From NCBI GenBank assembly GCA_045659705.1, contig JAZRCJ010000071.1:7810-71809 (forward strand): a stretch of 64,000 nucleotides of DNA, given 5' to 3'. Shown one piece after another: positions 29,259 to 64,000 of this stretch. Position 1 is the first letter of the stretch. Every line of letters begins with the position of its first letter. Below the pieces are notes generated by a model. That model made no database searches. It was not told where the DNA came from and saw nothing but the letters and a program-made list of their open reading frames with translations. Position numbers and translations under genes: made by a program. Origin of the DNA: Faecalimonas sp. (GTDB taxonomy: Bacteria; Bacillota; Clostridia; Lachnospirales; Lachnospiraceae).

Positions 29259-29324
29259 AATTTACCCCTTTTTAATGGTTCTGTTTTCGCTACAATCATA
29301 CACCATATGATGGATTTCTTCAAG

Positions 29325-31304: not shown

Positions 31305-31319
31305 TATCTAATCTCCCCA

Positions 31320-32693: not shown

Positions 32694-32717
32694 CTATCTA
32701 CCCCATATCAATATCCG

Positions 32718-33635
32718 TTAAAACAATTTTCCCGGATATACTCCCTCATCTACCAATGCTCTGATAGATGCTACTACTGACTCTTTATCTTCTTTGTATG
32801 TAACGCCGAACCACTTGTCGTGTGACTGAAGCACTTTCACTTCTGCCTTTCCATCATGCAACAAGTCTCCTACGATTGTTGGAAGCAAATATTCTGCTTT
32901 CATACTATTATCTCCAACATTTTCTAGAAAACTACAAAATCCAGATTCTAATATTTCAAAAAACTCTGTACCAAGTGCCCACATATTCATAGAAACCGGT
33001 GATTTTACATCGATTTCCACGATTTCTTCTTCTGTACGCACAATAGCGCCATTTTCTGTTTTCTCAATGCCTTTTGTCTCCACGATATCTGTCAGCATAT
33101 GATGATCATCCACTTTGCAGATACCTCTGGTTACCGCGCCGTTTTCGCTCAAGGTATTTTCTAGCACAAAACCTACCATTCCGATTGGGCATTTGTCTTC
33201 ATTTTTTCCTTGTTCCTGCAAATATTTGAATGCTTCGACATAGGCCTGCTTTCCATAATAATCATCTGCGTTAATCACCAAGAATGGCTCTTTCACTACA
33301 TCCTTACAACAGAGAATAGCCTGTCCTGTTCCCCACGGTTTTGTTCTCTGTCCATACAAGGTATCGTATGGGCTTGGAATATCTGAAATTTCCTGGTAGG
33401 CATATGCCACCTCTACAACCTTTTCAATTCGTTCTCCGATAACTTCCTTAAAATCTTTTTCCAAATCTTTTCGGATTACAAAGACTACTTTATCAAACCC
33501 AGCTTCCATAGCATCATAAATAGAATAATCCATGATAATCTCACCATTTGGTCCCACTGGTTCTAACTGCTTGATACCGCCTCCAAAACGACTCCCAATA
33601 CCTGCCGCCATGATTACAAGTGTTGCTTTTGCCAT
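32718..33635 (-). CDS. Sugar-phosphate nucleotidyltransferase
   Basis: LVIMAAGIGSRFGG..KQL, KPWGTG, INADDYYG, WFGVTY. Confidence 0.85.
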   Translation of the reverse strand: MAKATLVIMAAGIGSRFGGGIKQLEPVGPNGEIIMDYSIYDAMEAGFDKVVFVIRKDLEKDFKEVIGERIEKVVEVAYAYQEISDIPSPYDTLYGQRTKPWGTGQAILCCKDVVKEPFLVINADDYYGKQAYVEAFKYLQEQGKNEDKCPIGMVGFVLENTLSENGAVTRGICKVDDHHMLTDIVETKGIEKTENGAIVRTEEEIVEIDVKSPVSMNMWALGTEFFEILESGFCSFLENVGDNSMKAEYLLPTIVGDLLHDGKAEVKVLQSHDKWFGVTYKEDKESVVASIRALVDEGVYPGKLF

Positions 33636-48177: not shown

Positions 48178-49611
48178 TTAACCAAATGTCTTCTCCATTT
48201 TCTTATGTAACACTTCCGCCTTCTTTGCAAAGTTTTCGTAATCCGTCACCTTTTCCACATTCCACGTATTTTGCGCCAACATCGGAAGTCTCTCCAACAG
48301 ATTGATGCGTTCTCCACGCACTCCTTCTGCAATGCTCGGACTGTGTGTCGGTATATGATCTCCCCAAGCAAGGAGCTGTCCACCTATAATCTGCTCATTT
48401 GGCTCAGTCTCATATCCCGTCTCTATAATTGGGGACTCTCTATGCACAGCTTTCCACTTATAAATAGACCAATCGTAGACTTCTTCCGGTGTCCACATCG
48501 TAAGTGGTGCTACCACATACATCGGATTCCAAGAACAGTTGATAACCTTAAACCCTTCATCCAACAATTCCGAAGTAAGCTGATAATAATTTTCCCAGGA
48601 CATTACGAGAATATCCTTTGAAATCTTATCATTTACAGATTTTGCAAAACCTTCCCATACAATCGGCTGTTTTCCTTTTTGGAAGCACACCTCTGCCATT
48701 TCCGATATAAAATGTGCATACATCTGTTCTGCAAGCATATTCTTATCTTCCATATCAGAATCAATTCCCACACTTTTCGCATATTCTCCACACTTTGGAC
48801 ATCTTGTCCATTCTGCCATGGCATAGGCCTCATCGCCACCTATATGTACATATTTGGAATACGGAAACATATCACAAAGTTCTCGAAAAAGATTTCTCAT
48901 AGCCTCCATGGAATCTGCATGCTGACATATGATACCCATAGTGCCAAATATTTCTCCATAGGCTTCCCCAAAACTCTTGCAATGCCCCGGCACATCAATT
49001 TCCGGCGAAACTTCTACCCCTCTGGCGTTGGCGTATTCTACAAGTTCTTTTATCTGGTCTTTCGTATAAAAACGTTCTTTTGTAGACAGTGCCGGATATA
49101 TATCACTTGGCAGTGTATAACTCTGGTCATCTGTAAAATGCAGCTGTAACACTGCTACTTTATAGAAATAACACATATCCACATAGGACAAAAGATAAGA
49201 AAATGGATGCCAATTTCTCGCAAGGTCTACCATCATGCCGCGATAGCTACAATCCGGTTTATCCTCGATTACCATTTCCGAAAGTATGATGTTGCCATCT
49301 TCTTCCTGCATAGCCTGTAGCAACGTGGCAAATCCATGATTGATACCCACTGAATCTTTGGCATAAATAACGATAGTATCCTCGCTCACTTCTATTCTAT
49401 ATTCCTCAAATGTCATTTTCTCGTCCCGCACAACTTGAATATGACCTTCCTCTTTTATGGCAACCTTTATGCCATATAATCGGTCTGCATAAGCCACAAA
49501 AGCCTCCTGTGCGGCAGAAAACTCTGGATTTTGTTTCATAGATGGTGCATAGGTCTTAAGCGCATCTTTTTGTTCTTTTTTTATCACTTTTGGTGTTGGT
49601 ATTATGTTCAT
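48178..49611 (-). CDS. GH20 beta-N-acetylhexosaminidase (no signal peptide)
   Basis: RGMMVDLAR, LHFTDDQ, PEIDVPGH, HIGGDE catalytic pair. Confidence 0.9.
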   Translation of the reverse strand: MNIIPTPKVIKKEQKDALKTYAPSMKQNPEFSAAQEAFVAYADRLYGIKVAIKEEGHIQVVRDEKMTFEEYRIEVSEDTIVIYAKDSVGINHGFATLLQAMQEEDGNIILSEMVIEDKPDCSYRGMMVDLARNWHPFSYLLSYVDMCYFYKVAVLQLHFTDDQSYTLPSDIYPALSTKERFYTKDQIKELVEYANARGVEVSPEIDVPGHCKSFGEAYGEIFGTMGIICQHADSMEAMRNLFRELCDMFPYSKYVHIGGDEAYAMAEWTRCPKCGEYAKSVGIDSDMEDKNMLAEQMYAHFISEMAEVCFQKGKQPIVWEGFAKSVNDKISKDILVMSWENYYQLTSELLDEGFKVINCSWNPMYVVAPLTMWTPEEVYDWSIYKWKAVHRESPIIETGYETEPNEQIIGGQLLAWGDHIPTHSPSIAEGVRGERINLLERLPMLAQNTWNVEKVTDYENFAKKAEVLHKKMEKTFG

Positions 49612-49616
49612 ATTTT

Positions 49617-49979
49617 TTATTCCCTTTTCAATGCATCATTCATAGATAGTAAATATACGCAGTATTGGTTCATGCTAACCCCTTCTGCTTTTGACTGTTC
49701 TGCCAATTGTCGGTGCAAAGTTTTTGGAAGGCGAAGTTTGAATTGTCCGGAATATTTTTTCAACTCCTCTGGTTCAGGTATGGCATTCCCCGACTGCAAC
49801 TCCGCTTCTATCCATGCGCGTTTTGCATCGATAATATTTTGAATGACTTCTTCCATTGTTTCCCCGATGGTAATACATCCCGGCAAATCCGGAAATATTG
49901 CAACAAATCCTCCCTCTTCATTATCTGGGATGATTTCCATCTTATAAGGCAAACTCATATAATATTCAACTGTCTTCAA
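49617..49979 (-). CDS. hicB: HicB antitoxin (RNase H-like plus RHH DNA-binding domain)
   Basis: FPDLPGCITIGET, IPEP, YSGQFKLRLPKTLH..A..EGVSMNQ; probable TTG start at 49979. Confidence 0.92.
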   Translation of the reverse strand: MKTVEYYMSLPYKMEIIPDNEEGGFVAIFPDLPGCITIGETMEEVIQNIIDAKRAWIEAELQSGNAIPEPEELKKYSGQFKLRLPKTLHRQLAEQSKAEGVSMNQYCVYLLSMNDALKRE

Positions 49980-50220
49980 CCTCTTTTTCCTCGCTTTCAA
50001 CAATATTTTTGACCATTTCTACATACACTTTCTTAATCGTATTATGTTTAGGAATCGTTATAGACCTACAACCTGGTTTTCTAAATGTACAATGGCTACT
50101 GCCACTTTTCGGTGAATTCATTATGTAGCCATATGACTCCAATACTTTTCTCAATTCATCAAAGCGTAAATCTGCAGACAATGTGCTAATTCGCCATAAT
50201 AATTTATCCCACTTGGACAT
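49966..50220 (-). CDS. hicA: HicA toxin (mRNA interferase)
   Basis: FDELRKVLESYGY, GSSH, ITIPKH, KKVYV; overlaps hicB. Confidence 0.9.
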   Translation of the reverse strand: MSKWDKLLWRISTLSADLRFDELRKVLESYGYIMNSPKSGSSHCTFRKPGCRSITIPKHNTIKKVYVEMVKNIVESEEKEVEDS

Positions 50221-50480: not shown

Positions 50481-50515
50481 AAAAAAACTACCAGAGACAA
50501 TGCTCTGGTAGCTTT
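50481..50515 (-). terminator. Terminator at the end of the glycan-utilization locus
   Basis: CTACCAGAG-N6-CTCTGGTAG with a T-run on the minus strand. Confidence 0.75.
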
Positions 50516-50522
50516 CATTGTT

Positions 50523-53500
50523 TTATTCTAAGTTAGTAATAATCGAATGGTTGACATCAAATTCATTTCCATTCAATGTTATGACTGTACCTCCAGTTTG
50601 TTTTGGGCTTTCATCATATCGCCCTGTCTTCAATCCATATGTAAAACGAATACCTTCCCATTCCACACTGATGGAATTTACATGTTGGTGTCCGAAGAAC
50701 GTACCGTCTGTTCCTGCTGCTTTTAAATATGGCAAAATAAATTCTGACATTGCAGACGAACCAACTGTTCTTGCTTGTTTAAACCCGAGATTGGTTTCAT
50801 AATTGTGACTGACACTTTCGGTATCTGCTTTCGCCTGATATCCAGCATTAACAAGCGCCGTCGTCACTTCTGCAAGTGGCACATGCACACATAAGAAGGA
50901 TGGCACTTCTGCACCCATATAGGCATTTACTTTTGCCGCTGTAGAGCGATACCAGTTAATCTGCTCATCATGGAAGATAAATTTTGTAGTAATTGCATCT
51001 TTATCTTCTTGATTTGCCACTCCGGAAATATTTGCACATCCATTCGTATCCATCATGAAAATGGTTCTCTGAATCTTGCCTTGCACCGCAATACCAATCG
51101 AATAATTACCATTACCGCCAATCTCATTTCTGCGATTAAAAACACAGTAATCGGATTCCATAAACTGCTGGCACTGCCAACTCACGCCCAATGCAGTTTC
51201 ATTGTCATGATTTCCGAAAATAGGAGCCCATAGAATCTTATATGAATCCATCTTCTCAACCAATTTCTGTAAAGCTGTTCCGTCATCATCAAATTCGCCG
51301 TATACATTATCTCCGGTCATTAAGATTAAGTCCGGCTTTTCCTTTGCAATCAATGCATCAAGCTCATTGTAAACCAGATTATTCATCTGATCAGTTGCAT
51401 ATTTGATAACCGAGCTTGCAGACAAACGATTCGCCGTCCTTTGTTGTGCACTGTCAATAATCTGTGTGTCCGTAATTTGCAACACTTTAATCTCTCTGTC
51501 CGTGTCAAAATCAAGTACAAAATCCAATCCACAACCACTGAGTGCTGCTGTATTTGTTGTATAAACTCTGCTCGCTTCATCTGCAATATCCGAGATGCTA
51601 ATTACAGAAGTTCCTTCTTCTGTGGTAGTTAAATCTGTAATGTGAGTCTCTGTTCCGTTTTGAGTTTGGCTACCTGTTTCTCCCAAAATATTGCGAGACA
51701 TGGCTTTGGCTTGAAGTGTATTAATATCTCCAAGTAATTGTGTGTGCATACTATCCAACACTGTTGCAGAATACCATTCGCTTCCTTCCACATAGCCAAC
51801 AGCTTTCTTACCTGCATTGGATGTATCGGCTCTTTCCCCTGCTGCCAGTTTCTTCAAAGCTACTAGATCAACCGTCTTAACAAATCCATCTGCAGTAACA
51901 TCATTTGTCTTGTATACAAGTACATTTTCCTTAAAGGTACTTGTTCCCATGGTTGTTTCATTCGTATAAACGACTTCATATTCACCTGGTTTTGTTGTAT
52001 TCCAAGATGATCCTTGCACCTTGCCATTAACCGTCACTGCCACTCCATCTGCAAAGTAAGCATAATCATCTGCACAATGTGTAATCTCTGTAGCCATTTG
52101 CTGTGTATAATTACCAAGTACAATATGACCATTTGACTTTTCTGAGTATACCGCGATGTTTGGGTTCAATTCACTTGTTACGCTATCTACATAGAAATAG
52201 GTGTTGTTATATAACACATCATTAAACCAAACACCAACTTCCAAGTCATCAAACAAATCATCACCGTCGCTATCCACATATTTTGTAGAAATGCTTAACT
52301 TATAGGTATTCTCAAATAATTTTACGCCTGCAACACCTGCATGAAGGGTTGCCAAAGTTTTGTCTGCATAACCCACGCTAAAAGTTTCTGCCGCATTTCC
52401 ATCAGAACCGATTCGTATACAGTGCCATCCCATCAACTTTTCTGACGGACAACCATAGAATAATTTCACGCCTTCTTTACTAAATCTTACATTTGTAGAA
52501 AATATTGCGCCATCTAAACTTCCCGTTTTCTCCGCTGTGGTCTTCGGATGCATAAGGGTTTCTTCCGGATTGCCACTGCCATATCCATAAACACCTGCTG
52601 CCGCGCCAGATGCATTGACATCAGAAAGGCCTAGTTGCTTAGCAAACTGACTTTTTTCTTCCTTTACATCCGTTATACTTACAGTATTTGCATACGCCTC
52701 TTCCGCTGTTAAGTAGGAAAATACAGACATTCCTGTTCCCACTTCATCAATTTTGTCTACATAATAATAATTGCGAAGTAACTTGCCATCGATCCATACG
52801 CCCAAACGAGCATCATCACTTTTACCGTCTCCGTGAAAATCCATCTTTTCGAGGCTAAGTCCTAATTTGAATGAATCGCCAAAGAATGTTGTTCTATCGA
52901 CTTCGGAGGCAGCAATTGTTCCTCCTATAATAGAATTATCTGTATTCGCCACTGTAATGGTGGCATTTAAAATATTAAATTTCGTTCCATACCAACCACC
53001 TTTATCCAGCGGTACCGCATAATGAATCTGTGAACCTGCTGTAGACTCCTCCACACTAAGATTCACTTCCATCAAAGTATTAAGGAGTGTGGTTGGTCCT
53101 ACAGAATTATGTACCTGTTTAATGCACTCACCATTTGCAAGTCCAAAGTCCTCCAGCTCCACTTTACGCAACCGACTGACATCCTGTACTTCAGATTCAA
53201 TTGCAATTGCCGTAGTACCTGTGGTGAAGTTTCCAGCTGCAAGCATCGAGAATCGATTCACCAGCGAAACGGATTCGGAGCACATATCTTTGATAATCAC
53301 ATAATGATTCTGCAAAAGTTTATCATTAATACGAATTTCAATCTTTCCATCGGTTGCGGCTCCATCACCATCCCAATCCCAAGGAATGGTATTAAAACTG
53401 ATGTCGAATTCTTTTCCTATCGGCATACCACTCGCATAAGATTGACTATTATCCCCTGAGGCGTCTGGTTCGTTCAGATAACTACCTCCCAACCTGGTTC

Positions 53501-54515
53501 CCGGTATAAACCAAAATTGTCCAGAAGATTTGATTTGAATGCGCAATCCACTAATATACCATTCTCTATCTCCCTCTTTCACAGTAGCGGTACTACCATA
53601 ATTAAGCATATATGTTCCGCTACCGCTTAGCATCATTCGTCCTTTCAATTGAGTAGATATCATGGACCCCACAAAGGTACCCGTTCTATAAGTGGCTTGC
53701 GTTGAAAAAGTTTGATCCGACAAACCATAATCCGCAAACGTAGCTGTATTATTATACGGTAATTCGCAGGATTCAACGGTGACTGAATCACAAATCCCAT
53801 CTGTTGAACCAAAATTACGTCCACTCACTTCACCAGCAAACCATTTTTCTGCCGTGTTCAAAATATAACAATTCCCATTGGCACCATATTTTGCCGGATC
53901 TCCAATCCCTTTCGTACTACTGTCAACACACAGAACATCATTTATGTATAGTTTAATTAGTACATCATTATTAAGTTCTCCACTTGTAGTATCTGCCACA
54001 CTATCCAAATTTGTCATTTCCACAGAAAAAGTGAGTTTAAATTTATTATTAAAAAAGGAAGCTAATCCAGCTGGCTTTGCAAACACAAATTTATTCACAT
54101 TATTACAAATTGCATCTGTATGCAAATACATATTATTGGCATCAAATGACAATTTAATACCTGCCCAAGTACGCGTAGCGTGAGATGGATCTCCTCCAAA
54201 TACCAAAAACGGATTGTTTGCTGCCGCAATAGTATCCCCCTCATTGTTTAGCGTAATATAACCACTAAATTGACTCTCAATTAATGAAGTCCCAGATCCA
54301 GCCGCACTAGAAATATAGCTCTTCGGAGTCAATCTCTCAGCTATCGTACTGTCAGCTAGCCCAAAATCTGCGAATGTAATTGGTCGTAATGTAGTTGTCT
54401 TGGTTGTTGCTGTTTGTGTCGTGTCATCTGCCTGCACTTCTTGGGTACCGACATTACTAAACGCAATGCCGGCAACCATACATAGCACCAACAAATATGA
54501 TAATATTTTTTTCAT
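50523..54515 (-). CDS. Secreted multidomain protein: four unassigned beta-rich modules, a dockerin-like segment and a C-terminal calcineurin-like metallophosphoesterase
   Basis: Signal peptide; repeated TFADFGL...DxDGDG..D...xxxND modules; VLQITDTQ, MTGDNV, FGNHD, HVP, GHQH. Confidence 0.75.
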   Translation of the reverse strand: MKKILSYLLVLCMVAGIAFSNVGTQEVQADDTTQTATTKTTTLRPITFADFGLADSTIAERLTPKSYISSAAGSGTSLIESQFSGYITLNNEGDTIAAANNPFLVFGGDPSHATRTWAGIKLSFDANNMYLHTDAICNNVNKFVFAKPAGLASFFNNKFKLTFSVEMTNLDSVADTTSGELNNDVLIKLYINDVLCVDSSTKGIGDPAKYGANGNCYILNTAEKWFAGEVSGRNFGSTDGICDSVTVESCELPYNNTATFADYGLSDQTFSTQATYRTGTFVGSMISTQLKGRMMLSGSGTYMLNYGSTATVKEGDREWYISGLRIQIKSSGQFWFIPGTRLGGSYLNEPDASGDNSQSYASGMPIGKEFDISFNTIPWDWDGDGAATDGKIEIRINDKLLQNHYVIIKDMCSESVSLVNRFSMLAAGNFTTGTTAIAIESEVQDVSRLRKVELEDFGLANGECIKQVHNSVGPTTLLNTLMEVNLSVEESTAGSQIHYAVPLDKGGWYGTKFNILNATITVANTDNSIIGGTIAASEVDRTTFFGDSFKLGLSLEKMDFHGDGKSDDARLGVWIDGKLLRNYYYVDKIDEVGTGMSVFSYLTAEEAYANTVSITDVKEEKSQFAKQLGLSDVNASGAAAGVYGYGSGNPEETLMHPKTTAEKTGSLDGAIFSTNVRFSKEGVKLFYGCPSEKLMGWHCIRIGSDGNAAETFSVGYADKTLATLHAGVAGVKLFENTYKLSISTKYVDSDGDDLFDDLEVGVWFNDVLYNNTYFYVDSVTSELNPNIAVYSEKSNGHIVLGNYTQQMATEITHCADDYAYFADGVAVTVNGKVQGSSWNTTKPGEYEVVYTNETTMGTSTFKENVLVYKTNDVTADGFVKTVDLVALKKLAAGERADTSNAGKKAVGYVEGSEWYSATVLDSMHTQLLGDINTLQAKAMSRNILGETGSQTQNGTETHITDLTTTEEGTSVISISDIADEASRVYTTNTAALSGCGLDFVLDFDTDREIKVLQITDTQIIDSAQQRTANRLSASSVIKYATDQMNNLVYNELDALIAKEKPDLILMTGDNVYGEFDDDGTALQKLVEKMDSYKILWAPIFGNHDNETALGVSWQCQQFMESDYCVFNRRNEIGGNGNYSIGIAVQGKIQRTIFMMDTNGCANISGVANQEDKDAITTKFIFHDEQINWYRSTAAKVNAYMGAEVPSFLCVHVPLAEVTTALVNAGYQAKADTESVSHNYETNLGFKQARTVGSSAMSEFILPYLKAAGTDGTFFGHQHVNSISVEWEGIRFTYGLKTGRYDESPKQTGGTVITLNGNEFDVNHSIITNLE

Positions 54516-54535
54516 ATGACTGTCCCCCTTATCTC

Positions 54536-57500
54536 TTATTTTCTAAGGCCCAATTCATATGCCCATCTTCTTGTAAATCCCCAGATTGTATACTCAATTG
54601 GCTTATGATAGGTGTAAATCTTTAAACTTGCATCCTTATTTGCACAATAAATACCAAGATGTCCTCCTAGCACATCTGCAATGTCCTGCAGATAGAACCA
54701 GCGATCCCCGTATGCTTTTCCATTAAACCATACGCCTAGTTTTACATCATCCTTTTTGCCATCCCCATCAGCATCCACATATTCGAAGCTCAGTTGCAAT
54801 TTTACATCTTCTCCAACCAGTGCAGTTCCTGCTGTTGCTGGATCAAAGTAGATATTTGCCATCTTTCCTTCCGCTTCGTTTAAGACCAACTTACCATCTT
54901 CTGTATTGGAAAGAATCAATCCATGCCATGCACTTGGCTTTCCGCCGATACGGAGCTGTGCTCCTGCATCCTTCGAAAACTGTACTGTATCGGAAAATAC
55001 AACTTTATTTAAACTTTCCAAACCACAATGTCCGCTGGCAGCCAATCCTAATTTATCAAAACTATAGGTGTCGCTTTTGATACCATAAGAATCAAATGTT
55101 AACTGTTTGAAGTTTTTATCCACTATAGGCGTCGGTTCCGGAATTCCGATTTTGATACTTCCTTTTTTGTTTTCCACATAGAAACCTACATAGTTTCCAA
55201 AAGCATCCGCTGCATTACTCAAATGGAAATAAGAACCGTCGTATAGTTCTCCATTAATATAAAACCCTAATTTTGCATGCTTGCCGTTCTTGAACAACTC
55301 AATCTTTAGGTCTATTTCTTCACCAACTAAGGCTGTGCCTGCAACTTCCGGCATCAGATAATAAACTTCTGGGAATTCTCCCGCACTTGCCTGTATCTGA
55401 ATGGCTCCATTGTCCTGCGTGGTAAAGTTTACACCATGCCATGCACTTGGTTTTCCACCATAACGGATACTATTTCCCTTATGTTTACTGAATGTAATCT
55501 TCGTGGAAAATGTGGAATTCATAAATCCACTTTTGTATGTTCCCGACACAACCAAATCATTGTTGTTATATTTGTAAAGTGCCTCGGTAATTCCCAATTG
55601 TCCTAGTGTCACTTTATGAAGCGCTGGTTTTTCAATCACTTCTTTCCCTTTGCCGTCCAGCGACTCTAGTATGACGTCCGAACACAAGCCTTCTACACCA
55701 ATATTTTGTATTGTGAAATACCCTTGCAAATTGTCAGTCTTCGCATTGAGAATATAGTAGGAACCATTTTCTCCATAAAGTTCTGCATTTCCTGTGTCAT
55801 TTGCAATCCAAAGAGTATCATTAATATACATTTTTACAAGTACATCGTCTTTTTCCGCACCACCATCTAAATTGGCCGATTCAAAAGCGACTGTCAGTCT
55901 AAACTTCTCACCCGCAAATGTTGTCAAGCCTTCATTGTTATCCGCACTGAAGGTATATGGATACGGATTGGTATCTGTTACAGAACCCTGATTTAACACT
56001 ACCGTTTTTCCATCTGGTTTAAACTGAAGTTGTACGCCATCCCAACCGGAGCTTTCTACCCCATTCGTTCCGCCAAGTACCACATAAGTTTCTGCACTTG
56101 CACTTGTCAAATCTTCATTTAATGTGAGATAACCGCTCACTTCTGTTCCTACAAGAGATGCCCCCTCGTTATAGGTTCCTCTCACACTTGTATATCTATT
56201 ATCTGCAAGTTCAAAATCGATAAATGTAAGTCCTGTCAATTCTACAGGTTCTTCCGGTTCTGGCTCTGGTTCCGGCTCTGGCTCTGGTTCCGGCTCCGGA
56301 TCAGGTTCTGGATCAGGTACAACACTGACATCTCCAAAAGTAATGTCTGAACAAAGTCCTGCAACACCCATCTGTTGCACGGCCAAATACCCTAACATAT
56401 TCTCTGTCTTTGCATTTAGAATGTAGTAAGAACCATCCGCTCCATAAAGCGCTGCATTTCCTGTATCATTTGCCACCCACAAATTATCGTTGATATACAA
56501 TTTTACAAGAATATCATTCTTTTCTGTTCCACCATCTAAATTAGCCGGTTCAAAAGATACAGTAAGTTTAAACTTTTCACCTGCAAATGTGGTTAGTCCT
56601 TCGTTGCTGTCTGCGCTAAATGTATATCCATACGGATTGGTTCCTGTCACAGAACCTTGATTTAATTTAACTGTTTTTCCATCTGGCTCAAACTGAATTT
56701 GAACACCATCCCATCCGGAACTTGCTAATCCTGTAGTTCCGCCAAGCACTAACCATGTTCCGGCACTTGCATTTGTCAAATCCTCATTTAATGTGATATA
56801 ACCACTGAGTTTTGTTCCTATCAAAGAAGCGCCTTCGTTGTATGTTCCTCTTACAAAGGTGTAAGTTCCGTCTGCAAGACCAAAACTTGTAAAATCAAGA
56901 TCCGTCAACACTACCGGTTCTTCCGGTTCTGGCTCAGGCTCAGGCTCTGGTTCTGGCTCCTGGGTTTCGATGCTGATAGATTCTAATGTAACATCTGAGC
57001 AAAGACCTGCCGCGCCAATCTGTTGCGCTGCAAAATAGCCCAAGAAATTCTCCGTTTTAGCATTTAAGATATAATAAGAACCATCTTTACCATAAGTTGC
57101 TGCATCGCTGACATTGTGTGCCACCCAAAGGTTGTCATTAATATAGAGTTTGAACAGAATATCATTTGCTTCTGCTCCACCGTCTAGATTTGCAGTCTCT
57201 AAACTAATAGAAAGTTTGAATTTCTCACCTGCAAATGTGGTTAAGCCAAGATTGTTATCTACACTGAAAGCAAATGGATATCCATTGGTGCCTACAGAGC
57301 CTTGATTTACCGTTACACTCTTTCCGCTTGGATCAAACTGTATCTGAATCCCATCCCATCCGGAACTTGCTAATCCCGTAGTTCCGCCAAGCACTAGCCA
57401 TGCTCCGGCACTTGCATTTTTCAAATCCTCGTTTAAAGTCACATAACCACTCAGTTTTGTTCCCACTAAAGACGCACCTTCTTTGTAAGTCCCTCTTACA

Positions 57501-58258
57501 AAGTTGTATGTGTTATTCTCAAGGCCAAAATCCGTAAAACTAATTGGAGTCAATTCTTCCGTATAAGACTCCAATGCTATATCCGAACAAAGACCTGCTG
57601 CACCTATCTGCTGTGCTGCAAGATAGCCTAACAGATTCTCTGTCTTTGCATTTAAGATATAGTAAGAACCGTCTTTGCCATAAGTCGCCGCGTCGCTGAC
57701 ATTATTTGCTACCCAAAGATGGTCATTAATATACAACTTAAACAGAACATCATTAGCTTCTGCACCACCATCCAAGTTTGCACTTTCCAAACTGATTGCC
57801 AGTTTAAATTTCTCACCCGCAAATGTTGTCAATCCTCTATTACTATCCACACTATAGGTAAATGGATACCCATTGCTTCCTACAGAACCTTGATTTACTG
57901 TTACGCTTTTTCCGCTTGGGTCAAACTGAATTTGAATACCGTCCCAACCGGAACTTGGAAGTCCTGTTGTTCCACCAAGAACCAGCCATGCTCCTGCGCT
58001 TGCACTTGTTAAATCCTCGTTTAAAGTGATGTAGCCACTTAATTTCGTTCCTATCAAGGACGCACCTTCATTATATGTTCCTCTTACAAAGGTGTATGTT
58101 TGATTTGCAAGACCGAAATTGGAAAATGTCAGTTCTGTCAACGAATCCGTTGATGTGTTTGTTCCGGCAAAAGACTGGATTCCAATAGCATTTAACACCA
58201 ATACCATCGCACAAACAACGGCCATTATTCTTTTCCTATATAATCGTTTTTCTTTCAT
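54536..58258 (-). CDS. Secreted protein built from six copies of an unassigned ~170-196 aa module with Pro-Glu linkers
   Basis: Signal peptide; four highly similar and two divergent modules; (PE)n linkers; probable ATG at 58258. Confidence 0.8.
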   Translation of the reverse strand: MKEKRLYRKRIMAVVCAMVLVLNAIGIQSFAGTNTSTDSLTELTFSNFGLANQTYTFVRGTYNEGASLIGTKLSGYITLNEDLTSASAGAWLVLGGTTGLPSSGWDGIQIQFDPSGKSVTVNQGSVGSNGYPFTYSVDSNRGLTTFAGEKFKLAISLESANLDGGAEANDVLFKLYINDHLWVANNVSDAATYGKDGSYYILNAKTENLLGYLAAQQIGAAGLCSDIALESYTEELTPISFTDFGLENNTYNFVRGTYKEGASLVGTKLSGYVTLNEDLKNASAGAWLVLGGTTGLASSGWDGIQIQFDPSGKSVTVNQGSVGTNGYPFAFSVDNNLGLTTFAGEKFKLSISLETANLDGGAEANDILFKLYINDNLWVAHNVSDAATYGKDGSYYILNAKTENFLGYFAAQQIGAAGLCSDVTLESISIETQEPEPEPEPEPEPEEPVVLTDLDFTSFGLADGTYTFVRGTYNEGASLIGTKLSGYITLNEDLTNASAGTWLVLGGTTGLASSGWDGVQIQFEPDGKTVKLNQGSVTGTNPYGYTFSADSNEGLTTFAGEKFKLTVSFEPANLDGGTEKNDILVKLYINDNLWVANDTGNAALYGADGSYYILNAKTENMLGYLAVQQMGVAGLCSDITFGDVSVVPDPEPDPEPEPEPEPEPEPEPEEPVELTGLTFIDFELADNRYTSVRGTYNEGASLVGTEVSGYLTLNEDLTSASAETYVVLGGTNGVESSGWDGVQLQFKPDGKTVVLNQGSVTDTNPYPYTFSADNNEGLTTFAGEKFRLTVAFESANLDGGAEKDDVLVKMYINDTLWIANDTGNAELYGENGSYYILNAKTDNLQGYFTIQNIGVEGLCSDVILESLDGKGKEVIEKPALHKVTLGQLGITEALYKYNNNDLVVSGTYKSGFMNSTFSTKITFSKHKGNSIRYGGKPSAWHGVNFTTQDNGAIQIQASAGEFPEVYYLMPEVAGTALVGEEIDLKIELFKNGKHAKLGFYINGELYDGSYFHLSNAADAFGNYVGFYVENKKGSIKIGIPEPTPIVDKNFKQLTFDSYGIKSDTYSFDKLGLAASGHCGLESLNKVVFSDTVQFSKDAGAQLRIGGKPSAWHGLILSNTEDGKLVLNEAEGKMANIYFDPATAGTALVGEDVKLQLSFEYVDADGDGKKDDVKLGVWFNGKAYGDRWFYLQDIADVLGGHLGIYCANKDASLKIYTYHKPIEYTIWGFTRRWAYELGLRK
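55640..58141 (-). repeat. Four intragenic tandem repeats of ~590 bp
   Basis: Units start at about 58141, 57553, 56908 and 56239 (minus strand); first period 588 nt; PE-coding hexamer repeats at ~56250-56320 and ~56915-56960. Confidence 0.9.
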
Positions 58259-58271
58259 TTTGTTTCCACCT

Positions 58272-59681
58272 TTATTCAAATACTACCAACACACCTTCTC
58301 CTGCTTTCAAGTCCAGTGTCATTTTATTGGTATCTACATAAGAAACTTTTGCCTGCTGCGTTACAGTTGCTTTATAAGAATCTTTTAAATCAAGTGTAAC
58401 TTTTTGCGCCTTTTCTGCCTCATAATTCACGACATAAAGTGCACTTTTCCCTTTAAAATTAAAGCAACCAATTAGTGCATTACCCTGCACACCTTCTACT
58501 TCTCGCCATGAAGTGCCTTCCAAAAGGTAATTCATACCCTTCATATCTTGCATTGCTTCCTCTCCGGATGCAATCACGCCTTTGTTTACCGCGTTCATCA
58601 AAACACTGTCCACTGCTGCAATCTGCTCATTAATGCTTTTTGCATAATGCCACCACTGTGTTTTATTACCTGCGGCACCGATAATTCCATTTCTTTGGAA
58701 ATCCCATGGGGTAGATTCTGCCAATGCAAAATAAGTCGGCTGAATCAGTGGGAAATACTGAATCCCCTTGGCGCCATAAGCAAGTGCTGTATTGACATTC
58801 CATCGAAATTGGCCTTCTGTCGGATAATATCCATTTGTATCGAATTTTTCTGCTGCATCATTCCATTGACTTCCTGCCTGCACATATACCCAGAACGGAA
58901 TCTCCTGTTCCTCTGCATACTTACGTATCACGTCTACGTTATAAAAATATCCTGCCTTTGTTCTTCCTTCGTCCCACACATAGTAGTCAAAAGACAGATA
59001 ACTAGGATTGCAGGTCGTACAATACTCTTCGATCATCTGATTATACTTTTCGTAATCCGCTTCTTCCCATACCGGGAATAAATTTCCGCCACCAACCATA
59101 TTCAGTGATGCCAAGTCCGTAAATAACGGTGCAAATGCTGAAATATCATGGGCTTGATCTTTTGACGGATAATAATACGGTGTTCCCGGTTCATCTACTA
59201 CATACACACCACAAAATGCAGGATAATCACTATATTCTGTAATGCGTTCGCTGACCTTTAACAGATTGGTTCCATCCCCTGTGGCTAATGTCTGTAACAT
59301 AGTATCCTGGACAAAAAGGCCCAATCCATATTTCTCTCCGAGTTCCAGTAACTTCCTTGTATCTTCCGGCGAAGTCTTATAGTCTGTACGCGTGTAGTGC
59401 GTCATATTCACGCCACATTCTGTAATACTCTCGAAAATCTCATCGGTGATGTAATTCGGAAAAGACTCACCATCCACGCTAGAATCTACCATGTATGGTC
59501 CATAGTATCCGGAAATTGGCATTACATCTGAGCCACCAATAAAATCAAAACTTACCGCCTGTACCTCTTCTATTTCCATAGGTTCCAGACTTGCTTTCTG
59601 CGTGCCACAGGCTGTCAATGATGCTAACATACCTGCCAAAAGCAATGCGCTGATGCCTCGCTTTAAAATTTTATGCTTCAT
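58272..59681 (-). CDS. Lipoprotein, putative glycoside hydrolase (TIM-barrel-like)
   Basis: Lipobox LTAC; GVYVVDEP, YLSFDYY, PFWVYVQ, ALAYGAKGIQYF. Confidence 0.6.
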   Translation of the reverse strand: MKHKILKRGISALLLAGMLASLTACGTQKASLEPMEIEEVQAVSFDFIGGSDVMPISGYYGPYMVDSSVDGESFPNYITDEIFESITECGVNMTHYTRTDYKTSPEDTRKLLELGEKYGLGLFVQDTMLQTLATGDGTNLLKVSERITEYSDYPAFCGVYVVDEPGTPYYYPSKDQAHDISAFAPLFTDLASLNMVGGGNLFPVWEEADYEKYNQMIEEYCTTCNPSYLSFDYYVWDEGRTKAGYFYNVDVIRKYAEEQEIPFWVYVQAGSQWNDAAEKFDTNGYYPTEGQFRWNVNTALAYGAKGIQYFPLIQPTYFALAESTPWDFQRNGIIGAAGNKTQWWHYAKSINEQIAAVDSVLMNAVNKGVIASGEEAMQDMKGMNYLLEGTSWREVEGVQGNALIGCFNFKGKSALYVVNYEAEKAQKVTLDLKDSYKATVTQQAKVSYVDTNKMTLDLKAGEGVLVVFE

Positions 59682-61242
59682 CTGCTTTTACCTCCTTTTT
59701 CTTCGGAGTTTTCTTGCCTTTTGCAACAAGCAGACAAGTACCGAATACGATTACGCCTGCGATTGCCGCATATGCCATTAACATACCCCAGTTAAAGCCG
59801 GACTCCTCATCCGATTCCAGATAGACATCTTCTGCCGGTTCATACGCATAATCTTCTGTTCCTGTCATTTTTCCTGACGCGTAATCTACATCAATGGTAT
59901 TTCCTTTTTGATCTTTGTTTACAATTTTAAAATTATCAATTGCAAAATTTGCCTGTCCCTTAGACCAGATATGTACATACCCTGTCGGTGTTGCATTTCC
60001 AATCTTATAAGAATAAATTTTCTGATACTTGGTATCTTTTAGTGCTTTCATCTCAATTGTCACAATCGTATCAATCACGGAAAGTTTTACCGAATAACCT
60101 TCATTTTTTTCTTTGTCTGAAAAATGTTTATCTGCAAAACTCACCGGCACCTGTGTACCTTTTAAGTTATAGAGACTATCTGCCCCAAACACGATTGCAT
60201 CTGCCGCCGTTGTATATCCGGCTTCCTTATAATCCGACGATTCATCTGCTATTGCAACTACCAATCCCGTACTTGCAGGCTTCTGAATAGTCCCTTCTTC
60301 TCTTAACTCATTCTTGTAGAGAATATATGGCACATCAAAGGTAACCTCAAAATTCGAATACTGATATACCGTTCCAAAATACCCAGCACCTGCATTGCTA
60401 AACATCAGCACTTGACTTCCGTTATATTTTTCCACCTGGATGGCTGCCGGATAAAATCCACAGGAATTAAGCATTTGTGATGTCAAAGTATTCACATTGA
60501 TGGTTCCTTGCTCAAAATCTTCAGAAACATTTACATTCTCCGGTGCTTCATAAGAATGTGACACAATCTGTACAGCACTGATTTCTGCCGCACAATTTCC
60601 AGTCTGCAAAAATCCCACACGGCCTTCCAAATTCATTGGTGCTTTTTTATCATAAATTCTCTTGTTGTTCACCTGGATATTTACCTTCATATCTGCTGTA
60701 ACAGATGCTTGAATGGTAATGTTTTGTCCGAGAGAAGCTCCCACACTCTGAGCGGCTACCAGTTTCTTTTCAGCTCCGTCTTCATCATAAGCAATGAGCC
60801 CAACCTTTAAACCACCATTATTTTCAAATACCAATTCCAGATTTCCTGCTTCTCCGTAATAGGATTCCAATGTGGTAAGCCCAAATGCCACTATGAATTT
60901 TTCGCCCTTTGGCAAGGTTTTTAGTTTCATGCTGTACTCTGCTTTTAAAAATTCTTCATGGTATTCACTGACTTTAATCGGATTTGCTGTAATCAGTCTT
61001 GTTTCTCCGGTGCTATCTTCCGGAAATAAGATTTTTCCATCTTTTACTGTCAGTTCTGCACTTGGATTATTCCATATGGTTGCATCCAGTTCTTCTGCAA
61101 AGGAAGTGCTATCAATAATAATATCACTGCTACCTGCAAACACGTGCATTGTATAAACACCACTGCCTGCGATAGCTATTGCCATCGCAAGCCCTAGTGC
61201 ACTGACTTTTTTCAATATATTTTGTATATTTCTTTTTTTCAT
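59671..61242 (-). CDS. Surface protein with beta-sandwich-like domains and C-terminal membrane anchor
   Basis: Signal peptide, two beta-rich segments (GRVGFLQ..; GYVHIW..FAIDNFKI), C-terminal TM plus Lys-rich tail. Confidence 0.6.
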   Translation of the reverse strand: MKKRNIQNILKKVSALGLAMAIAIAGSGVYTMHVFAGSSDIIIDSTSFAEELDATIWNNPSAELTVKDGKILFPEDSTGETRLITANPIKVSEYHEEFLKAEYSMKLKTLPKGEKFIVAFGLTTLESYYGEAGNLELVFENNGGLKVGLIAYDEDGAEKKLVAAQSVGASLGQNITIQASVTADMKVNIQVNNKRIYDKKAPMNLEGRVGFLQTGNCAAEISAVQIVSHSYEAPENVNVSEDFEQGTINVNTLTSQMLNSCGFYPAAIQVEKYNGSQVLMFSNAGAGYFGTVYQYSNFEVTFDVPYILYKNELREEGTIQKPASTGLVVAIADESSDYKEAGYTTAADAIVFGADSLYNLKGTQVPVSFADKHFSDKEKNEGYSVKLSVIDTIVTIEMKALKDTKYQKIYSYKIGNATPTGYVHIWSKGQANFAIDNFKIVNKDQKGNTIDVDYASGKMTGTEDYAYEPAEDVYLESDEESGFNWGMLMAYAAIAGVIVFGTCLLVAKGKKTPKKKEVKADEA

Positions 61243-61253
61243 ATACCCGTCAC

Positions 61254-62768
61254 CTACTTAATATTCAATAACCAGTTCTTGTCATAGTTATCATTAATCA
61301 GTGCCACAATACTATCCCATGCTTCTGTCGCGCTAATACGATCTGCTTCACTGTGTGAACAGAACAAGTTTACAAATTCCTTATTTGCAAATGCATGACC
61401 CCCACCATCAGTAAAGAGTCTGTGTTTGCTGATAATGTTGTTGTTAATGCCAGACTCTGTTTTTGCAAACAATTCTGCCTGGTTTAATTCAAATTGATTC
61501 CATCCGGTTGTATCAATATCTCCGGTGCTCAAATTCATTGGCATCTTTACATGCAAAGTATCCAAATACATCTGATATCCTTCATCTGAATACATAAATT
61601 TAAGGAACTCTTTCGCACCTTCCTGTGCGTTACTGTATGTCGGAATATATGCCGTTTCACCAGCATAGTTTGTCGGCATCATATTACGAGCTGTTTTTAC
61701 AGTATCCCAATCCGCTGCTGAAATTTTTTTCCCTTCCACAACATAATTATCACCTTTTTTATAGGTGTCGATATTTTCCACACCATCTGTTACATTATCA
61801 ATTGCCGCAATCACTTTACGAAGTTCCGGTTCTGTCTTAACCGTTTTCAAATGGTCAATAATGGATGAGATAACCGGTGTTTTCATCATGACAAAATTAT
61901 CAACCTTATCGCTGTTACTCATTTCACTTGCAAGCCATGAACCGGTGAACATCATTCCACATTCCCCTTCTAAGAACTTTGTCTGCATAGTCACATGGTC
62001 GTCTGAATTGGAACCTTGCAATACATATTCCGGTTTGATAATCTTTTCCATTGCCTGTACTGCTTTATATCTGCCATCTTCTGTTGTCATCTTTTCCTTA
62101 GAAGGATCTGTGTAGAAATCATAGTAATATTCCGTGCCATTATACTGTGCGAACCAAGCATCACAGAGATACCAATAATACTGGCTGCCTTTAAAATGAC
62201 AAAGCGGTGTAATGGCATTATCGGAAAGTGTAGCACACACAACTGCTAATTCATCGGTTGTTCTTGGAAGCTGTGTGATTCCCGCTTTTTCAAACAACGA
62301 TTTGCTGTATACAAATCCCATAATTCCACCGCCATATGTAAGATTGTAATAGTTGCCGTCTAATGCTTCTTGTTCCAAATAACTTGCGTCAAATTTTTCT
62401 TTGATGCTTACGGATTCTCCTTCCACTGTGGTATCCAACACATCATTCAGTGGTTCTAAGTATGTAGTATCGTATTCCTTTGCTGCCAAATACAAATCGA
62501 CCGTATCCACATCTTCTAATCCAAATGCAGCATTAGCCGCTTCAAAGTCTGCTGTCCCTTTAAAATACACCTTGTATTCTGATTGTTTTTCATTAAATGC
62601 CTTCACCAGCACATTTAACCACTCATCACCAAGACCGGCGTGCCAATAACTGATTTCCACGTCTTTAGCACTATTGCCACCTTTACTGCCGCCCTTCTTT
62701 CCACAGCCTGCCATAAGGCCAAGTGCAAGTACCCCTACAAGTACCATTGCCAATAATCTCTTTTTCAT
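61254..62768 (-). CDS. Carbohydrate ABC transporter solute-binding lipoprotein
   Basis: Lipobox MAGC; YSKSLFEKAGI..PRTTDEL, FLEGECGM..TGSW, AKEFLKFM; next to permeases. Confidence 0.88.
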   Translation of the reverse strand: MKKRLLAMVLVGVLALGLMAGCGKKGGSKGGNSAKDVEISYWHAGLGDEWLNVLVKAFNEKQSEYKVYFKGTADFEAANAAFGLEDVDTVDLYLAAKEYDTTYLEPLNDVLDTTVEGESVSIKEKFDASYLEQEALDGNYYNLTYGGGIMGFVYSKSLFEKAGITQLPRTTDELAVVCATLSDNAITPLCHFKGSQYYWYLCDAWFAQYNGTEYYYDFYTDPSKEKMTTEDGRYKAVQAMEKIIKPEYVLQGSNSDDHVTMQTKFLEGECGMMFTGSWLASEMSNSDKVDNFVMMKTPVISSIIDHLKTVKTEPELRKVIAAIDNVTDGVENIDTYKKGDNYVVEGKKISAADWDTVKTARNMMPTNYAGETAYIPTYSNAQEGAKEFLKFMYSDEGYQMYLDTLHVKMPMNLSTGDIDTTGWNQFELNQAELFAKTESGINNNIISKHRLFTDGGGHAFANKEFVNLFCSHSEADRISATEAWDSIVALINDNYDKNWLLNIK

Positions 62769-62787
62769 AACTACCATTTCCTCCTTT

Positions 62788-63654
62788 TTATCCTTTAATT
62801 CCACCAACAGAAACATTTGTTGTAATCATTTTGTTAAATACAATAAACAGAACAATCGCCGGAATGGATATAATCACACAAGCGGCGAATAAGATATCCA
62901 ATCGCGCCCGGTAAATCATCTCTGTATTAAACTGGTAAATACCTACCGGAAGTGTCGGCAACTGTGGTAAATAAATCAGTGCACTTTCATAAGTATTCCA
63001 GTTCATAATCCAGTTTGTTAAAAACAAAGCTCCGAAAATCGGTTTTGTCTGCGGAAACATCACCTTAAAATAAATCTGGAAATCGTCCGCTCCGTCTATC
63101 ATTGCGGCCTCCGCATAGGTCCACGACAGATTTTTAAAGTATGCCGTAAAATATAAAAACATCATATTAAAACCGCTTGCCGATGCAATAACCTGTGCGT
63201 AATTATCAATCAATCCTAAAGAATGATAGAGCTTATATACCGCCCCACCGTTTCCGTAAATCGGAAGCGTAATCATAATCAGAACAATCACATATGGCCA
63301 CGAGGAACCGCGAAACTTATATTTGCTGCATGTATAAGCAAATGTGACTGTTGTAAACACCTGAATGAATACCCCGACAACAGAAAACCAAACACTGTTA
63401 AACAACATATTGAAAAATGTATTATCATTTACTTCCAGTAATCGGAACACATCCAAATAGTTTTCCCAGTGCCATGTAGTCGGCAATCCAAACGGATTCA
63501 TAACAATCTCCGTATTGGTTCGAAGCCCTGCCAATATGGCCCACACTAAAATGTAGAGATAACTAAGCGCCACCACCATAAAAATGACAGATACAACAAT
63601 ATGTAATACTACTTCGGCTGGTGATTTTCGTTTAAAATTTTTAAATAATCTCAT
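62788..63654 (-). CDS. Carbohydrate ABC transporter permease (MalG-like)
   Basis: WENY, EAAMIDGA, WNTY, TLPVG. Confidence 0.92.
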   Translation of the reverse strand: MRLFKNFKRKSPAEVVLHIVVSVIFMVVALSYLYILVWAILAGLRTNTEIVMNPFGLPTTWHWENYLDVFRLLEVNDNTFFNMLFNSVWFSVVGVFIQVFTTVTFAYTCSKYKFRGSSWPYVIVLIMITLPIYGNGGAVYKLYHSLGLIDNYAQVIASASGFNMMFLYFTAYFKNLSWTYAEAAMIDGADDFQIYFKVMFPQTKPIFGALFLTNWIMNWNTYESALIYLPQLPTLPVGIYQFNTEMIYRARLDILFAACVIISIPAIVLFIVFNKMITTNVSVGGIKG

Positions 63655-63666
63655 CTCTCACCCTCC

Positions 63667-64000
63667 TTAGTACTCTACTTCGTCAAACAATTTATCCGTA
63701 AGTTTTCTGATAGAGAGTGAAATGATAATCGCCACTATCGTAATCAGCAAACCAACTGCAGACATAAAGTTATATACATTCGATGTGTACACAGAGCCTG
63801 CATTGTTATACAAGGTCGTGTACATCCATGCGCTGAGCGTCATGGTTTCGTATTGTCCTCCTGTCAGAAGGAAAACATTACCGGTTGCACCGAAGATACC
63901 GCAGAAAAGCAATACCATTTGAAGCGCCACTGTCGGCCATACCATTGGCACAACAATCTTGGTAAATTCTGTCCACCATGTCACACCGTCTATCTTGCCA
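63667..64000 (-). CDS. Carbohydrate ABC transporter permease (MalF-like), partial; 5' end beyond the window
   Basis: Frame open to the window edge: ..KIDGVTWWTEFTKIVVP (EAA loop), LLTGG, C-terminal TM. Confidence 0.88.
   Translation of the reverse strand, partial: GKIDGVTWWTEFTKIVVPMVWPTVALQMVLLFCGIFGATGNVFLLTGGQYETMTLSAWMYTTLYNNAGSVYTSNVYNFMSAVGLLITIVAIIISLSIRKLTDKLFDEVEY

Follow-up and report, generated by a model that had tools for sequence, protein, structure and literature searches.

Which genes make up the working unit of the glycan locus at the edge of a 64,000-nucleotide stretch of Faecalimonas sp. DNA, and what does that unit feed on? The stretch (hereafter the window; G000:C71:7810-71809, from a 1.36 Mb assembly that is 63% complete) contains a run of minus-strand genes at 50523-64000, which the original prediction, made from the DNA letters, described as an ATP-binding cassette (ABC)-centred system for the surface capture and degradation of a glycan. 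We found that the conserved unit is a six-gene core, H-G-F-E-D-C, in which two permeases (G and F) and a solute-binding lipoprotein (E) accompany two anchored proteins (H and D) and a glycoside hydrolase (GH)-like lipoprotein (C), and that the downstream genes B and A are variable cargo. The idea of a surface capture-and-degradation system is retained, with a predicted surface complex of D and C, for a unit redrawn in this way. Our best reading of the whole, to which we give a probability of about 0.5, is a six-gene surface capture-cut-import unit for N-acetylhexosamine (HexNAc)-containing, often rhamnosylated, non-plant glycans, in which D is predicted to bind C.

The genome carries four whole copies of the core, the window copy included. 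The other three lie on contigs C20, C43, and C38, a partial copy lies on C63, and the identities are 32–71%. This recurrence is far beyond chance. An alignment of D was scanned against species genomes and gave 79 D-seeded loci (the best 80 of 92 stretches) with 50 accession prefixes by our count, titled as metagenome-assembled genomes (MAGs), bins, or uncultured organisms. The nearest loci are from Faecalimonas MAGs, and the others are from Oscillospiraceae and unnamed Clostridia of herbivore and human gut. E lies upstream of D in 73 of the 74 assessable loci, C follows D directly in 68 of 74 and as the second gene in 2, 63 of 66 have both permeases upstream, and 56 of 62 have H. The gene-neighbourhood comparison for which the original prediction had called shows that the genes are conserved together. 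Among 47 genomes of the genus, D was found in 13, E in 14, and the C family in 14, with up to 8 copies of D per genome; reciprocally, 35 of 37 strong E matches in these genomes lie directly before a D match, and three weak E matches do not. The distribution of the cassette is patchy, with at least 1 of 400 other genomes of the family and at least 1 of 398 other scored genomes of the class carrying it. Seven C-seeded metagenome loci keep the same parts in the order C-E-G-D'-F-C, where D' (873–938 aa) is a homologue of D (98.1% by hhalign); in reordered cassettes among L136 and L139-L145, it ends in an fn3-like domain and a transmembrane (TM) anchor. The solute-binding proteins (SBPs) of paralogous cassettes are 44% identical at the median, which suggests a shared product type. 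The six core genes very likely form a conserved functional unit. In a distant clostridial lineage (L071-L090, L124-L132), a protein of about 605 aa with GH67N and DUF4838 domains almost always follows C, and an unassigned secreted family (K0, 39 members) takes the place of the proteins with R modules described below.

D (59671-61242, minus strand, 523 aa) has a signal peptide, two predicted β-sandwiches, a linker, and a C-terminal TM helix; signal peptides, lipoboxes, and TM helices were called throughout from hydropathy and by eye. It matches no Pfam family at E ≤ 0.1. The predicted model (predicted local distance difference test, pLDDT, 87.9) consists of a legume-lectin/ConA-like sandwich at residues 37–231, a second sandwich at about 232–445, and a conserved extended linker at 457–475. 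The best match of the first domain among legume-lectin/ConA folds has a Z-score of 16.8 (root-mean-square deviation (rmsd) 2.9, 186 aligned residues); the second sandwich was barely examined by fold comparison. DUF1080 (PF06439) gave weak matches in 4 of 71 D copies (best E 0.00055), and the DUF1080 chain 3hbk matches D at Z 15.6 among many ConA-like folds. Foldseek proposed mostly neurotoxin receptor-binding domains for D (TM-score 0.22–0.25, rmsd >20), and these were rejected as generic ConA-like matches.

The predicted complex of D and C scored 0.90 in three runs, and the best of 3 controls scored 0.28. Of 157 solved complexes, 116 score at or above the mark used, as do 2 of 215 mismatched pairs; these counts are only roughly valid with our own alignments. 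The runs agreed in at least 88% of contacts, with a partner pLDDT of at least 90. The linker and second sandwich of D are predicted to dock on C beside the barrel loops, so D would hold C at the surface. The closest predicted contacts join D residues 461–465 to C residues 337–345. Position 464 of D is Asp in 66 of 71 copies, and N339 and position 345 of C are conserved in core copies (0.87 and 0.89) and not in large fused C proteins (0.19 and 0.12). In a comparison that ignores kinship and surface exposure, core-conserved interface positions of C are retained in fused forms at 0.55 vs 0.79 elsewhere (12 vs 143 positions). These models indicate that D probably binds C at the cell surface. Longer D proteins carrying a fusion were sought and none was found, which is weak evidence. 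P0394, a 980-aa D-C read-through, was rejected as evidence of fusion; it keeps both membrane segments, a close relative has an unfused twin (P0391), and it probably arose through assembly or a frameshift where the two genes overlap.

C (58272-59681, minus strand, 469 aa) is a lipoprotein that matches no Pfam family at E ≤ 0.1. Its predicted model (pLDDT 94.2) is a TIM barrel, (β/α)8, followed by a C-terminal β-sandwich. The best fold matches are GH42 and GH164 enzymes of clan GH-A (Z 25.8, rmsd 3.7, 352 aligned residues; Z 23.8 in a wide search; Z 22–26 over the best matches), with which the strand-6 D-x-Y, strand-8 Q-Y-F, and strand-4 Glu motifs align. The pair D163-E164 stands at the end of strand 4, where E164 occupies the place of the acid/base Glu. 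D163 is present in 110 and E164 in 111 of 111 aligned sequences, and both are present in 230 of 232 sequences of a second, partly redundant set, in which the two exceptions are gaps, most likely belonging to two degenerate paralogues on contig C69. A weak profile alignment to three GH42 proteins (hhalign probability 2%) places the GH42 nucleophile on V267. Position 267 is hydrophobic and never Glu, and position 268 is Gln in 207 of 232 sequences and Glu in 4; the clan-A nucleophile Glu is therefore missing from the aligned C proteins in either register.

The family membership of C was examined by profile. The GH42 profile PF02449 did not match the window C and matched weakly in 3 of 71 core copies (best E 0.0012); one distant relative reached 35.8 bits over part of the protein. 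DUF4091/GH123 matched none of the 71 core copies at E ≤ 0.05 and none of the wider C-family proteins at E ≤ 1, and the GH20 profile matched neither the 71 core copies nor the C-family proteins examined. Solved GH123 and GH20 chains were not among the 50 structure matches listed for C, and sequence searches of solved structures with C found nothing. A C homologue had 30 matches in the ESM Atlas, of which 21 fell in clusters without a common family and the other 9 in clusters where 11% of members carry GH42. The C family is large and unassigned: 4370 representatives are counted at E ≤ 0.001, and at E ≤ 1e-10 there are 2562 (50% identity). C has Asp-Glu where GH42 and GH164 enzymes have Asn-Glu, it lacks the strand-7 Glu, it is shorter (469 aa against about 680 aa), and it is a lipoprotein. 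It resembles GH123-related β-N-acetylgalactosaminidases and GH20 enzymes in its consecutive Asp-Glu on a TIM barrel without a conserved enzyme nucleophile, but it matches neither family profile and its scaffold is closest to GH42. By these defining features, C is neither GH42 nor GH123 and is a candidate for a new GH family.

What reaction C might catalyze is suggested by two precedents. Substrate-assisted catalysis in GH123-type enzymes depends on a DE motif (PMC11087588). GlmA, a GH35 exo-β-D-glucosaminidase (5gsm, Z 19.2), has Asp-Glu in place of Asn-Glu on a GH35/GH42-like scaffold, where it reads the C2 nitrogen; GlmA keeps its nucleophile Glu347 and rejects N-acetylglucosamine (PMC6566704), whereas C has Gln or a non-acidic residue at the nucleophile position. 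Since C lacks a nucleophile and has an invariant Asp-Glu like the DE motif of GH123-type enzymes, we infer that it may cleave after β-HexNAc with the acetamido group as the nucleophile. Of 61 long proteins, 49 join C to R modules, and C also has signal-less paralogues, as expected of a catalytic domain, and the pair is nearly always kept in R-fused, signal-less, and stand-alone environmental relatives, which favors catalysis over a binding-only role. We see an even chance that C is an active HexNAc-cleaving enzyme.

Several relatives of C occur in other settings. On contigs without the cassette (L147-L153), C-family genes occur alone and encode the same Asp-Glu and Gln. At G000:C69:1770-25345 (L159, L160), three proteins of 2233–2386 aa surround a GH78-like gene and combine C-family domains, two of them apparently degenerate, with metallophosphoesterase or dockerin-like parts. 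The C-family proteins P0269, P0314, and P0379 carry cohesin (E 6.6e-9) or dockerin (E 1.6e-9) domains, which hints at cellulosome-like assembly in some hosts.

The import genes provide a separate clue to the ligand. G (63667-64000 in the window, minus strand, with its start outside at extended position 64587, G000:C71:72396) encodes a MalF-type permease of 306 aa with a BPD_transp_1 domain and a MalF-like NCBIfam score below the cut-off; F (62788-63654, minus strand) encodes a MalG-type permease of 288 aa, also with BPD_transp_1; and E (61254-62768, minus strand, 504 aa) encodes a family-1 solute-binding lipoprotein (SBP_bac_1). The nearest solved chain to E is 9h0n (E 4.9e-13), that is, Blon_0883 or BiGFL-BP, which is reported as a binder of lacto-N-biose and galacto-N-biose (LNB/GNB) that contacts HexNAc through G47, W290, E294, and E327 (bioRxiv 2025.02.07.637197); its similarity to E over the whole chain is low (52 bits). 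Counted along the alignment, these residues correspond to G45, W278, E282, and E371 of E, and the platform residue Y208, at position 1, corresponds to Y197. In 95 distinct homologues of E, W278 and E282 are present in 95 of 95, Y197 in 94, and G45 in 85. In contrast to Blon_0883, whose Asp210 specifies galactose, E has Trp in the window and Asp in 20 of the 95 homologues. In the next two structure matches of E the Trp is retained, and NagB2, which binds chitin oligomers, has Ala where the Glu would stand. The top NCBIfam matches of E are TIGR03850 and NgcE, both far under the cut-off. These alignments point with moderate strength, and independently of C, to a HexNAc-containing product with a variable neighbor sugar. 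The original prediction regarded the glycan as unknown, a view that two independent core proteins (C and E) now revise. Compared with 9h0n, E has some 65 additional residues (from about 300 to 365) that are conserved in the E family and may be where D or H docks.

H (585 aa, G000:C71:72374-74131, wholly upstream of the window) has a signal peptide, two internal repeats, a conserved membrane-proximal region, an InlB B-repeat, and a C-terminal TM helix; only the B-repeat matched solved structures. In regards to the cargo, B (54536-58258, minus strand, 1240 aa) is a secreted protein of six R modules, each 170–200 aa, with a C-terminal tag. It gave only weak or low-complexity Pfam matches, with no catalytic domain and no TM anchor found. 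A (50523-54515, minus strand, 1330 aa) is a secreted protein with four R modules, an Ig-like segment, a dockerin-like segment judged by eye, and a Metallophos domain (residues 1010–1279, E 2.7e-9) with all five motif blocks. The six-module protein and the four-module phosphoesterase were correctly foreseen. The R module gave no convincing Pfam match and no PDB match, and a binding role is suggested because it is fused to catalytic domains. The tag, of about 18 residues with the pattern D-F/L-x-x-aromatic-G-aromatic-x3-4-W-K-x-x-L, is found at 54536-54600 in B and in L015, L024, L025, L029, and others. It ends 20 of 33 complete R-only proteins and is absent from all 29 R+C fusions and from all 999 other open reading frames (ORFs) of the loci, the pattern having been drawn from the same proteins in which it was counted, and it may be a docking or membrane tag. 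Weak tag matches just before TM anchors were seen in three proteins.

The first gene of the run, I (G000:C71:74145-76082, wholly upstream of the window), is GH78 rhamnosidase-like cargo with four Bac_rhamnosid domains (best E 4.9e-73). Reading the upstream sequence, as had been proposed, yielded H and this gene, which is cut by the contig end. In a scan of 74 of 122 cluster representatives, the cargo around the cores included GH78, GH106, GH38, GH36, GH2, GH20, GH13, GH127, GH95, GH4, GH39, GH30, GH65, DUF2961, DUF4838, esterases, peptidases, and a de-N-acetylase. A phosphoesterase is present in 5 of the 79 D-seeded loci, so the proposed phosphorylated glycan may hold for the window copy only.

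In our best reading, these parts would work as follows. The six genes are seen to stay together and to be copied as one block, with differing enzymes beside them. The glycan would be bound by D, H, and the R modules. C, held by D, would cleave after β-HexNAc by substrate-assisted catalysis, with E164 as the acid/base and D163 steering the 2-acetamido group that stands in for the missing nucleophile. E would bind the products through HexNAc and hand them to G and F, powered by an ATPase encoded elsewhere; two TOBE-bearing ORFs of ATPase size lie elsewhere in this genome. The cargo enzymes would strip the decorations of each glycan, here by means of the phosphoesterase and the rhamnosidase.

The role of C can be read differently within the same cassette. 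C could be a non-catalytic, pseudo-enzyme lipoprotein that binds glycan and passes fragments to E in the manner of SusD while the cargo cuts; the missing clan-A nucleophile, the presence of C whatever the cargo, and its predicted seat on D agree with such a role, which is nevertheless unlikely given that Asp-Glu is also invariant in relatives outside the core and that E already supplies a binding protein. It seems slightly less likely still that C is a glycosidase of another kind, either an α-retaining enzyme with D163 as the nucleophile and D232 or E164 as the acid/base, which we take to be the pattern of GH27/29/151, or an enzyme for a free amino sugar, with a substrate that need not be HexNAc. 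D232 lies at the end of strand 6 and is Asp in 207 of 232 sequences, GH27, GH151-type, and BT_0435 folds are among the matches of C at Z 17.5–17.6, and the cargo is rich in α-rhamnosidases, α-mannosidases, and α-galactosidases; yet among 66 core copies with D163-E164, 18 have Thr in place of D232, the best folds are β-acting enzymes of clan GH-A, and E independently points to HexNAc. The locus might also be an ordinary Gram-positive polysaccharide utilization locus (gpPUL), a standard ABC importer with merely linked neighbors and neither a complex nor a special architecture. The permeases and SBP are of standard families, and all pairs of core genes co-diverge (r 0.89–0.96), which we do not count as support for a unit because linkage by descent alone explains it. 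This account is improbable in view of the persistence of D and C with the transporter across several families and through a change of gene order, and of a D-C model that passes its controls.

The substrate was approached through the enzyme content of whole genomes, most of which are incomplete. The median number of GH78-like genes per genus genome is 7 in cassette-bearing genomes vs 0 in the others, all of these genomes being kin and not independent. Of 13 genus genomes with the cassette, 9 have at least 5 such genes, compared with 1 of the 34 without it. Of five cassette-rich genomes tested, GH20 and GH29 are present in 5, rhamnose isomerase and GH43 in 4, GH112 and weak GH10 in 2, and GH5 in 1; GH28 is found in 3 of 13 cassette genomes, at most at 81 bits. 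Plant polysaccharide as the food is disfavored by the rarity of GH28 and GH5 and the weak GH10, tempered by GH43. This enzyme content fits HexNAc-, rhamnose-, and fucose-bearing non-plant glycans as the food. The same mechanism could serve host mucin or N-glycans, a proposal that concerns the substrate only and is compatible with our best reading. GH29, GH20, and GH112, the kinship of E to an LNB/GNB binder, and GH38, GH95, and GH2 as cargo speak for it, while the excess of GH78-like genes and rhamnose isomerase, a cargo that includes GH106, DUF2961, GH65, phosphoesterases, and a de-N-acetylase, and the lack of conservation of the galactose-specifying Asp in E speak against it; moreover, rhamnose is not a sugar of mammalian glycans. 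We place microbial surface polymers slightly ahead of host glycoproteins; microbial surface glycans are a tentative choice of main food, at less than even odds, and host glycans are a little less likely.

Several observations weigh against our best reading of the unit. The D-seeded loci are not independent, many coming from one genus, and 4 of 74 loci have no C after D, while 6 of 62 lack H. In distant C forms the interface contrast is gone, with retention of 0.49 vs 0.55 (p 0.56), and the likeness of R modules to the first D domain is weak and unstable (48.6% in one comparison and 3.5% in another). Position 371 of E is His in 28, Gln in 27, and Glu in only 18 of the 95 homologues, a maltose-type SBP scores nearly as well as 9h0n against E, and E scores far below the cut-offs of HexNAc-type SBP families (96 bits against 299, and 88 against 400). 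The catalytic positions of C come from alignments and predicted strand order, not from coordinates, and the constancy of C beside widely varying cargo would also suit a non-catalytic adaptor. The GlmA report (PMC6566704) describes a clash of the equivalent Asp with an acetamido group and warns that such catalytic predictions can mislead.

The locus was compared with known systems. A gpPUL is defined by three criteria that include a transport system and a transcriptional regulator (PMC13543919). Two of the three are represented in this gene run, by a transport system (SBP_bac_1 and two BPD_transp_1) and a GH78; an AraC cluster is present in 24 of the 79 related loci, and the window contig ends inside the first gene of the run. 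Like the mixed-linkage glucan gpPUL of Blautia producta (PMC10318527), which unites an ABC importer and its SBP, glycosidases, and AraC regulators in one locus, the cassette includes a surface enzyme with appended binding modules. The same paper states that gpPULs lack stand-alone surface glycan-binding proteins and use carbohydrate-binding modules on enzymes; unlike the gpPULs it covers, the cassette core has two stand-alone anchored proteins and a GH-like lipoprotein in up to 8 copies per genome. The cassette resembles the starch utilization system (Sus) and related loci of Bacteroidota in its constant core in many paralogous loci, its variable enzymes and binding proteins, and its predicted surface assembly. 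D, with its predicted lectin-like fold, is a candidate for a surface glycan-binding protein of the Sus kind. It differs in importing through a cytoplasmic-membrane ABC system, and no gene of the run matches the SusC TonB transporter or SusD in Pfam or NCBIfam. The Sus-like function that had been proposed is thus an analogy of logic only, and the locus is not a Sus locus. A bolder version, in which H, D, and C assemble around the dedicated importer as a Gram-positive counterpart of the SusCD utilisome, C founds a group of substrate-assisted endo-N-acetylhexosaminidases on the GH42 scaffold, multi-module secreted proteins dock by a short C-terminal tag, and the chassis is copied and re-armed so that uncultured gut Clostridia can feed on the surface glycans of other microbes, is doubtful.

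No description of the cassette was found in the open-access literature, subscription papers and CAZy lying outside the search, and we regard the locus as a candidate for a gpPUL variant not previously described, whose features include a possible new family of glycosidases and the predicted D-C complex at the surface. Gram-positive glycan loci have been described as lacking susC/susD and stand-alone binding proteins. If the core is reused as susC/susD is, it would help to locate such loci and would account for how some uncultured Lachnospiraceae and other Clostridia feed, and a substrate-assisted enzyme on a clan GH-A-like scaffold, if true, would be a new route to that mechanism. The proteins of the cassette lend themselves to expression and assay with no need for a culture of the host. 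To our knowledge, the recycling of microbial surface glycans in the gut has been little studied.

The seven genes lie at the positions first described. Once the upstream sequence is read, the run comprises at least nine genes, I-H-G-F-E-D-C-B-A. H and G overlap by 23 nt, and the following gaps, in 5' to 3' order, are 12 (G-F), 19 (F-E), 11 (E-D), -11 (D-C), 13 (C-B), and 20 nt (B-A). An intrinsic terminator-like hairpin at 50488-50511 (minus strand), followed by a T-run, closes the putative operon; the 55-nt stretch has a folding energy of -22.4 kcal/mol. The seven co-oriented genes with gaps of at most 20 nt or overlaps and a final terminator are therefore as had been described. Pfam matches in the run are limited to the permeases, the SBP, the phosphoesterase domain of A, the B-repeat of H, and GH78, and no protein of the run matched NCBIfam over its cut-off. 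The claim of an ABC-centred glycan locus with surface proteins of no curated family is supported.

Just past the terminator (49617-50220 and 48178-49611, minus strand) lies a HicA-HicB toxin-antitoxin pair, whose promoter at 50269-50240 matches the sigma-70 consensus perfectly. Genes for a GH20 hexosaminidase and uvrB/uvrA-like proteins, the latter assigned by eye, come next. Genes for LytR/CpsA/Psr, a GH25 lysozyme with SH3/fn3, a sugar transferase, and a nucleotidyltransferase at 27600-33635 (minus strand) form the start of the host's own surface-polysaccharide genes.

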